Part shown: positions 5,750-53,832 of the stretch, in pieces
How the letters are laid out: every line of letters starts with the position of its first letter
Numbering within the stretch: position 1 is the first letter of the stretch
Assembly (NCBI GenBank): GCA_964486045.1
Contig: CAZALK010000001.1
Span: 520,242 to 584,241, forward strand
DNA: 64,000 nucleotides
Origin: an uncultured archaeon
GTDB taxonomy: Archaea > Asgardarchaeota > Lokiarchaeia > Sigyniarchaeales > SOKP01
Reading direction: 5' to 3'
Notes under the pieces: generated by a model
What the model was told of the DNA's origin: nothing
The model's database searches: none
Seen by the model: the letters and a program-made list of their open reading frames with translations, nothing else
Made by a program: the position numbers and the translations under genes

Positions 5750-5850
5750 AGCCTCTGGGGGGAATTGAACCCCCGGCCTACAGATTACGAATCTTTAACA
5801 TTTACGTCAAAATGATATTAAATGTTGCTCTACCGCTAAGCCACAGAGGC
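5750..5850 (-). tRNA. tRNA-Thr(CGT) with 29-nt intron at 28/29 (5795-5823)
   Basis: Acceptor GCCTCTG/CAGAGGC-T; restored anticodon arm ACAGA-TTCGTAA-TCTGT; relaxed HBh' motif AGCA/TGTT with TTTA/TAAA. Confidence 0.93.
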
Positions 5851-7307: not shown

Positions 7308-7411
7308 GGGCTATTGGCGCAGGCAGGTAGCGCAACAGGCTTTTAACCTGAAATTTATGAGATTAACTCTCCTGAAAAGGAAGGTCGGGGGTTCGATTCC
7401 CCTATAGCCCG
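7308..7411 (+). tRNA. tRNA-Lys(TTT) with 30-nt intron near 44/45 (about 7353-7382)
   Basis: Acceptor GGGCTAT/ATAGCCC-G, loop CT-TTT-AA, T-arm GGGGG/CCCCT; the junction can slide within a repeated GAA. Confidence 0.92.
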
Positions 7412-50378: not shown

Positions 50379-50977
50379 TTTCGACAGCCATACACTCGTG
50401 CTGTTGAGAGTAGCGGGCTGAATAGGTCGCCCGTAAGCTCCCTACGTACACCCCTACCTCACCAACCCCGTCTTTTACGGGGGCACTCGTCTCGATTCCG
50501 CAGTTCACGTCACCGCGCCCTGCTCTCGTTATCAACGCTTATAACCCATTACAATTATGGCTTTATACTACATGCTTTTGGCAAAGCTCAATCATCAAGG
50601 TCTCCCCCAATAATTTAAACTTCACCTCTACACTCCGAACTGACTTCCGGCTTTCACAGGACTGCCTTGTCAATTCAACCAACTGCAATACGCTAAAAAG
50701 CGCCTAACATTATTGATCGAGATTGGCTGACTATTTTCGGGTCCGGCTTCGTGCTTAGATGCTTTCAGCACTTATCCGTTAGCGCGTGGCTGCCCAGCAA
50801 TACCTTGTCAGATAACTGGTACACTAGTGGCGCCGGCAAAATGTTCCTCTCGTACTGATTTTCCCTTACCCTCAGTCAACCTACAAGCCCAGCAGATAGA
50901 ATCCGACCTGACTCACGTCGGTCTGAACCCAGCTCACGTTCCCTTTTAATGGGCGTACAGCCCCACCCTTGGAAGTT

Positions 50978-51020
50978 GTGCACCCGGCATTAAAACCGTT
51001 TTAACGGCCCCAAAACCGGT
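50978..51020 (-). other. Putative 43-nt BHB intron in 23S helix 91 loop
   Basis: GCAC-AT|A-CCGG...CCGG-GTGC-AC|A. Confidence 0.75.
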
Positions 51021-51629
51021 ATGTGCGCTCCCAGGATAGGAAGAGCCGACATCGAGGAAGCAAGCCACGAGGTCGATAGGAACTCTTGCTCGTGACAACT
51101 CTGTTACCCCCGGGGTAATTTTTCTATCACCTTAACCACCCACACGAGGTTAGTTAAGGATCGCTAGACCAGGCGTTAGCCTCAGGATTCCTTGGTGATC
51201 AGAATCCAGTCAGACCAGCTTTTGCTCTTAAACTCTTCAGCGGATTCCTGACCCGCTTGAGCTGATCATTGGTTACTCTAGATATTTTTTCTAGAGTGAG
51301 CCGCCCCAGCCAAACTGCCCACCTGCGGATGTCCAACACGTTTTGTGCCGTTAGCGATTTCAGAAAGGAAGGCCGGTATTCCATTTGTGCTCCACCGTGA
51401 CCGAAATCACGGCATCTCCGCTACCGACTATACTCTGCATTCAGTCCAAAACCGCAACAACAGGCTGCAGTAAAACTCCACGGGGTCTACTCGTCCCGCT
51501 GGGCTTCTCCGGTCCGTTCGCCGGAGTGTAATTTCAATCGTCAGAAGGCTGGGACAATGGGGAGAACGTTGGACCATTCATGCACGTCTGAACTTACCAG
51601 ACAAGGCATTTGGCTACCTTAAGAGAGTT

Positions 51630-51686
51630 CTAACTCCGTCTGTCGGAATGACGCGATTTACGCTATTGGAATGATGATAAGACGGT
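51630..51686 (-). other. 57-nt BHB intron in 23S helix 69 (after E. coli position 1917)
   Basis: GGGAGT-AACT-AT|A-CCGTCT...AGACGG-AGTT-AG|A-ACTCTC; excision restores the conserved H69. Confidence 0.92.
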
Positions 51687-53832
51687 ATAGTTACTCCCGG
51701 CGTTTAGCAGGACTTACTCTGGTTGTAACCAGGATTTATCAAACTGCCACTGGCCAGGTTTCAGCTTCTGTAAAAAAGCTTTCGCTCTATCAGAAACCTA
51801 TGTTTTTGTTAAACAGTCGTCCCCCCCTAGTTATTGCAACTTGTGAGCCCCTTCACACTACCGAAGTTGCGTGAAGAAGTTCGCAAGCAAGCCTTCTCCC
51901 AAAGTTACGGCTCTAAATTGTCGATTTCCCTAGCCTCCTTTACACGAATACGCCTTAGGCTACTCACCTAGGGGCACCTGTGTCGGTTCTGGGTACGATC
52001 ACGGCATTTCTTGTTGATGTATTTTTATTAAGTCCTGGACTCAGCGGAGCCTTCCACAATTGGATGGTTATTCATGCTTTGAGCTGGGTCTAAGATTTAC
52101 TCTATTCACCAGCTTTATACATTTAAATAGGGAGATATTCGACGACCCTATTCTACTTATCCGGAACTGTCTACATACAACCATGCGTCACCGCTATTCG
52201 TAGTGCCGTGGTACAGGAATATAAACCTGTTTCCCTTTCGCGCGTACCAGTTAAGGGTGCGCTTAGGATCGACTAACTCTTCGCTGACGACGCGTTGCAA
52301 AGAAACCCTTGCCCTTTCGGCGGATGGGATTCTAACCCATCTATGCTTTTACTATTACCAGGATTTTCACTCCGAAGCGGTCCACAGGAACTCACGCACC
52401 TGCTTCAGCCCACTCCGGACGCTCCCCTACCAGATCACGGGGTTCTTCCGCCCGTGCTCTTGGGTCTCGGTGGCAGATTTAAGCCCCGTCCATTTTCGGG
52501 GCTATATTTCTCGGCAAATGAGTTGTTACACACTCGTTAGGGAATGGCTACTTCTATACCTATCCTTTTGCTGTTTTAGAAATATAACGCCCTTTCGTTT
52601 AACACTTAACCTGCACTTAGGGACCTTAACCCAAGTCTAGGTTGTTCCCTTCTCGGCGATGGACTTTACGCCCACCAACCCGTTTCCCAGAGTCTACAGT
52701 GCCAGCAAATTCGGAGTTTAAGAGCGAGGAGAGGAATTCCTTCCCCTTACCACACAATTAGTGCTCTACGTCACTGGCGACTTCGTCTGAGACTTGGCTG
52801 ACACCAACTTCGGGGAGAACCAGCTATCACCGATCTAGATTAGCCTTTTGCTCCTATTCCCAGTTCATCCAAGAGAATTGTACATCATCACTGGTGCAGA
52901 CCTCCATCGCCCTTTCGAACGACTTCATCTTGACCAGGAATAGATCGACCGGCTTCGGGTTTTACAGCAGAAACTTTTGGCCCTTTTAGACCATTCTTCT
53001 GGCCTAACTCCTTAGTAGGATTCGCTAAACGTTATCAGAGTGGCAAAACCACGCGTCAACGAGTAAACCTTCCTAATGTGATAGTTAGGTTGCAAGAATA
53101 TTGGTTTCCCTATGCCTTCGTGGGTGATCCACTTAAGCTTGCTACTACTGTAAACTCCCTGGCCAATGATTCCAGACTGATGATGCAACCCTAGTCCTCT
53201 GTGCTTTGACATTCCGTCACCGGAACTCATTCGCGCAGAATCTATCCTTTCAGGCTGCATCCTTACTAAGCTATTTGGTTTCAAGCACTTTTCACGACCC
53301 TTCCGGGTTACTTTTCATCTTTCGCTCACGCTACTACTTCACTATCGGTCTTGGGTTATATTTAGATTTACCAGCGTGTATCTGGTACATTCATACGAGA
53401 AAACCATCCCGCATTACTCGGGAACTCTCGCAGCAACCTTCTAGATTTTTATTACGCGGCTATCACGCTCTATGGCTCAGCTTTCCAGGAGTATTCATAT
53501 TCTCTAGAGAGGTCGTACAAGGTCCACACACCACATTTCCACTAGGTTTCCCTAGGGATTCGGTTTGATCTATTCCGCTTTCGCTCGCCGTTACTAACGG
53601 AATCACTATTGTTTTCTTTTCCTCCTGATACTAAAATGTTTTACTTCTCAGGGTTCCCCTTCCCACGAGGGAATCTTGCGGATTATTTGGCCGCAAGTGG
53701 ATGTCCTATTCGAGGATCTCGGGGTCAACGTCTTCATGCGACTAGCCCGAGCTTATCGCAGCTTGTCACGCTCTTCATCGGTTCCCAAGCCAAGATATCC
53801 ACCAAATAGCGGAGGCGTATTGGCGTCTAGTT

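Follow-up and report, generated by a model that had tools for sequence, protein, structure and literature searches.

A canonically spliced bulge-helix-bulge micro-intron is very probably encoded in the helix-91 loop of a Lokiarchaeia 23S rRNA gene

The 23S rRNA gene of one lokiarchaeon carries 43 extra nucleotides in the loop of helix 91, and the locus raises the question of whether these are an intron and, if so, what loop their removal leaves in the mature rRNA. The window analysed here is a stretch of 64 kb, to which all plain coordinates refer. It contains an archaeal 23S rRNA gene at 50384–53826 on the minus strand (Rfam RF02540, 2487 bits), the only copy found when the 5.2-Mb assembly was searched. 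The 16S rRNA gene, which has no large insert, is located about 52 kb away (C1:626407–627898). The source organism belongs to a family of Lokiarchaeia (Promethearchaeota) that we take to be SOKP01 in GTDB. As judged from its fold and from the same site in related genomes, the insert is very probably an ORF-less archaeal bulge-helix-bulge (BHB) micro-intron that is spliced canonically, with neither a scar nor a shifted cut.

The intron, as delimited by folding and by comparison with relatives, occupies 50978–51020 on the minus strand. It is located 3' of the sixth base of the helix-91 loop, presumably at about position 2534 in E. coli numbering anchored on A2531. Read along the rRNA strand, the predicted fold starts with the 5' strand of helix 91, GGGAG, and an unpaired C (51027–51032). 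It continues with GCAC (51023–51026), the first four loop bases, which are exon sequence, include the equivalent of A2531 and form the 5' strand of the central helix. The 5' bulge AUA (51020–51022) holds the predicted cut 51021/51020. It is followed by the intron hairpin (50984–51019), with a CCGG/CCGG base, a 10-bp upper stem and a 4-nt loop, and by the 3' strand of the central helix, GUGC (50980–50983), which belongs to the intron. The 3' bulge ACA (50977–50979), with the predicted cut 50978/50977, leads to an A facing the unpaired C and to the 3' strand of helix 91, CUUCC (50971–50976). Both cuts are placed by the EndA rule and the intron-less relatives. At the exon–intron junctions, each strand thus has a 3-nt bulge, and a 4-bp central helix separates the two; helices flank this motif on both sides, the exon helix being 5 bp long. 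Folding of the rRNA strand reproduced exactly the helices, the bulges and the C facing an A that the first-pass annotation had described for 50971–51032. The central helix of the source sequence is in the canonical register with pair probabilities of 0.95–0.96, and none of 200 shuffles is as stable as the segment 51032–50971 (z = −3.6 to −5.3). Because the exon-side pair adjoining the central helix is C·A, the motif is slightly relaxed. Canonical cutting, after base 2 of each bulge, removes 51020–50978 and gives the 7-nt, C·A-closed loop GCACAUA, in agreement with the product that the same annotation had derived.

A BHB-shaped pattern by itself is not beyond chance, as a strict scan found three in the 3.4-kb gene against zero to four in shuffled sequences. 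It is the comparison with relatives that carries the argument. What does go beyond chance is a BHB lying exactly on the borders of the insert, in the source genome and in 23 others. Among the 135 genomes of the family sample, 40 cover helix 91; the insert is present in 24 of these and absent from 16, always with the same insertion point and at lengths of 28–58 nt. Between the 5-bp stems, each of the 16 intron-less genomes has 9 nt (CGCACATAA in 13 and CGCACCTAA in three), which amounts to a 7-nt, C·A-closed loop, and the product loop of the source genome is the loop of those 13. Exact letter matches to the predicted spliced product occur in genome G114 (L056) and in metagenome contigs L075 and L082. 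Ten metagenome contigs, obtained with a pattern built for short loops with this 5' flank, carry the predicted product loop, all at the same length. The intron stems covary: in the first five pairs, 105 of 115 cells are paired, compared with 54 ± 6 (maximum 77) when the arms of different introns are exchanged, a count over 23 introns that, as kin, are not independent. The presence of the intron changes at least eight times on an exon tree from which 10 short rows and the helix-91 loop itself were removed, whose deep branches are moderately supported and in which gain and loss are not told apart; the distribution is also patchy within genera g28 and g29.

The BHB on the borders of the insert and the intron-less relatives that match the product support the earlier proposal of a micro-intron at an unusual site. 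Its description of the splice product as non-standard holds when the reference is the 6-nt loop of E. coli, but not when the reference is the organism's own family, in which a 7-nt, C·A-closed loop is normal and present in all 16 intron-less genomes. The comparison with intron-less Lokiarchaeia loops thus leaves nothing that is non-standard for the family. The same proposal had offered a 1-nt scar, a shifted cut or retention as ways to account for the product. A shifted cut that restores a 6-nt loop, or a 1-nt scar that is new relative to the organism's own lineage, would agree with the 6-nt loop of 46 Asgard genomes outside the family, and the source sequence alone gives the same product if both bulges are cut after the third base. 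Against these readings, the 6-nt loop occurs in none of the 40 family genomes, and the intron-less members already carry the 7-nt loop. Canonical cutting gives 7 nt in all 24 intron-bearing genomes and regenerates the native, intron-less loop in 23, the sole exception, L059, having an exon substitution. No other placement of the cuts does so in all of those 23 genomes. Earlier cuts are excluded because the middle base of the 3' bulge varies among relatives (A, C, G, T), in line with its being the last base of the intron, while cuts one base later are excluded by introns with an initial T (L037, L049, L060, L068). Since the intron-less loops match the canonical product in length and the canonical placement is the only shared one, neither a scar nor a shifted cut is indicated, and both have minimal probability.

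That the mature rRNA keeps the insert as an expansion hairpin specific to the lineage gains some plausibility from the true expansion segments that exist in Lokiarchaeia (PMC7594248). Most relatives also have a stable predicted fold in a slipped register with 5-nt bulges, and EndA might not cut such a fold. Yet the 3-4-3 arrangement holds exactly across hairpins of 28–58 nt, neither border departs from its EndA cut position, and presence is patchy even inside single genera. [quoted passage not shown] The Asgard segments ES9 and ES39 are likewise extra sequence in the Lokiarchaeia 23S gene, but they are retained at peripheral sites (Penev 2020, PMC7594248), whereas the insert has BHB borders and a patchy presence. 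An expansion segment would be a stable feature of the lineage, placed at a variable site on the periphery, but the insert is found in 24 of 40 genomes and in a conserved loop; helix 91 is not mentioned in that paper. Cleavage without ligation, which would leave a fragmented 23S rRNA like that produced by bacterial intervening sequences, is opposed by the RtcB encoded in the genome, and a break in the helix-91 loop would be unlikely to be tolerated. An assembly artefact is contradicted by 23 other independent assemblies in which the same site is occupied by different, compensated hairpins. Between them, fragmentation and artefact have hardly any likelihood.

Removal as a canonically spliced BHB intron also agrees with the splicing machinery of the genome, which encodes two EndA subunits (genes on C7 and C10) and RtcB. 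The RtcB gene (G000:C1:512216–513523) is on the same contig as the 23S gene, about 7 kb before the start of the window. The catalytic EndA subunit has the Tyr/His/Lys motifs and, in its N-terminal loop, a Lys that aligns with K44 of Aeropyrum pernix; the second subunit is without the His. By its sequence, the enzyme is classed as an (αβ)2 type with a relaxed-specificity loop. Enzymes of this type are reported to cleave relaxed motifs; the loop permits relaxed BHB substrates and is reported to be conserved in Asgard archaea (PMC5829648). In the proposed pathway, the intron in pre-23S RNA would pair with the first four bases of the helix-91 loop to form the 3-4-3 bulge-helix-bulge, and EndA, the tRNA splicing endonuclease, would cut 3' of the second base in each bulge. 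RtcB would then ligate the exons, and the 43-nt piece would probably be circularised. The mature rRNA would be left with the family's native 7-nt loop. Cleavage, ligation and circle formation are all predictions from sequence here. The most likely classification is a tRNA-type intron of known kind and not a new splicing mechanism.

The pairing of the central helix differs among relatives. Of 23 distinct related introns, 16 have GCGY as its intron strand, which produces an A·C mismatch in the canonical register, and for these ViennaRNA favours a fold slipped by two bases whose bulges measure 5 nt. The source genome is unaffected, having GUGC and the canonical fold. The 5-4-5 register can be paired in every one of the 24 introns, and most relatives are predicted to fold in it. 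It was rejected as the cleaved form, as base-2 cuts there would give a loop two bases below the native one and the source sequence folds canonically. In the relatives with the mismatch, either EndA would capture a minor register or the A·C pair would be tolerated. A GCGC palindrome in helix-91 introns (L036–L062) also gives the two ends of the intron a short direct repeat, possibly a trace of how the intron arose.

Small introns have been met before in archaeal 23S genes. Kjems and Garrett reportedly described in 1991 two small, ORF-less BHB introns in Staphylothermus marinus: hairpins of 54 and 56 nt that lie in domains IV and V of its 23S rRNA gene, which is present in a single copy. The Lokiarchaeia gene also has one intron in each of the two domains, in a different phylum and at positions that are apparently different. 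The S. marinus introns are reported to be spliced in vivo, while for the helix-91 intron splicing is predicted. The geometry is also that of the canonical archaeal tRNA intron at 37/38, in which four central-helix loop bases, with two and one from the bulges, make a 7-nt loop; the helix-91 intron differs in its rRNA host and in the loop-closing pair, which is C·A and not Watson–Crick. Hairpin-forming BHB introns of less than 50 nt are known from the 16S rRNA genes of Thermoproteales and Desulfurococcales (Jay and Inskeep 2015, PMC4496867). The helix-91 intron has every testable feature of these, being shorter than 50 nt, without an ORF, a single hairpin with BHB at its junctions, and patchily distributed in a conserved rRNA loop. 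Those introns are removed by EndA and RtcB, and the same removal is predicted here. The differences are in the host, the 23S gene of mesophile-type Lokiarchaeia, and in the site, the helix-91 loop.

Other classes of insert do not fit. A homing-endonuclease (LAGLIDADG) intron is ruled out by the length of 43 nt and by all 24 family introns being 28–58 nt; no endonuclease-coding intron was found at this site in the 40 family genomes. Group I and II introns are ruled out because their ribozyme core takes hundreds of bases, against the 43 nt here, and the window has no Rfam intron match. A mobile repeat is ruled out, the intron body being without a second copy in the genome. A literature search of incomplete coverage returned no paper on helix-91 introns or on a 7-nt variant of the loop; within that coverage, the present case adds helix 91 to the sites of BHB introns.

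Outside the family, all 46 readable Asgard genomes have a 6-nt loop without an insert, and the 7-nt loop is therefore a family trait. Genomes of the sister family (one of 6.04 Mb with three copies and one of 4.32 Mb) likewise have 6 nt and no insert. A scan of 185,579 species, covering helix-91 segments of 20–50 nt with a GATGTCG anchor, found a helix 91 longer by one base in groups of Bacillota, Anaerolineae, Sphaerochaeta and Alphaproteobacteria and in three Nitrososphaerales. In bacteria this is mostly an extra U ahead of the loop. The cases among L113–L231 (many Eubacteriales, Anaerolineales, Sphaerochaeta and Alphaproteobacteria, with Nitrososphaerales L160, L206 and L220) are independent one-base expansions without an intron. 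A longer helix-91 loop is rare and not unique to the family. Two Thermoproteota MAGs, S9B2_HD70 (L140:125–213) and S9B1_HD70 (L216), have BHB-type hairpins of 28 and 31 nt at the same 5' cut, and canonical cutting there returns the loop to the standard 6 nt that their relatives have. The site thus serves introns in at least two phyla without forcing an extra base, which weakens the idea that an intron in helix 91 requires a 7-nt loop.

These observations bear on the origin of the family's loop, which may be the fossil splicing scar of an intron in the family ancestor. An ancestral intron, through the 4+2+1 geometry of EndA, would have fixed the extra base, and later loss of the intron would have kept the longer loop. 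In favour of this origin, a single family holds both the 7-nt loop and the intron among Asgard archaea. It is opposed by the two Thermoproteota introns with a 6-nt product, by the one-base expansions that arise elsewhere without introns, and by the earliest-branching genus of the family, which is intron-less. Because that genus already has the 7-nt loop, the order of loop before intron is favoured, on a tree in which gain and loss are not told apart. That an ancestral intron created the 7-nt loop is accordingly unlikely and may stand only as a historical possibility; if true, a splicing event would have permanently remodelled a loop touching the sarcin-ricin loop. Whatever its origin, the helix-91 loop, which neighbours the sarcin-ricin loop, is near-universal, and its lengthening by one base throughout the family is a natural variant that could be tested in a model ribosome.

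The host gene provides an internal control in a second BHB intron of 57 nt in the helix-69 loop (51630–51686, minus strand), delimited by canonical cutting, with bulges AUA and AGA. When it is removed canonically, what remains is the 33-nt segment that intron-less relatives have; no insert was found at this exact point in the related loci that cover it. Hairpin inserts are seen about 10 nt past helix 69 (L032, L033, L044, L046, L076, L077, L079, L080), near E. coli 1610 (L139, L133, L215), at the tip of helix 89 (L158) and near 2602 (L125). At these other conserved 23S sites, the inserts of family relatives measure 29–36 nt, apart from one of 125 nt. Together the inserts would make up a family-wide set of rRNA micro-introns. 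One Lokiarchaeia family with many rRNA introns of about 30 nt matters for annotation, for probe and primer design and for rRNA alignments.

Two tRNA genes in the window, at 5750–5850 (minus strand) and 7308–7411 (plus strand), are about 30 nt too long, with introns apparently outside 37/38. Read by eye, they are Thr-CGT and Lys-TTT; both are miscalled by ARAGORN, whose intron calls are too unreliable for tRNA intron positions. In the 23S gene itself, a large and highly variable region near helix 98, of the ES39 type (about 50490–50720, minus strand), differs in length between family members.
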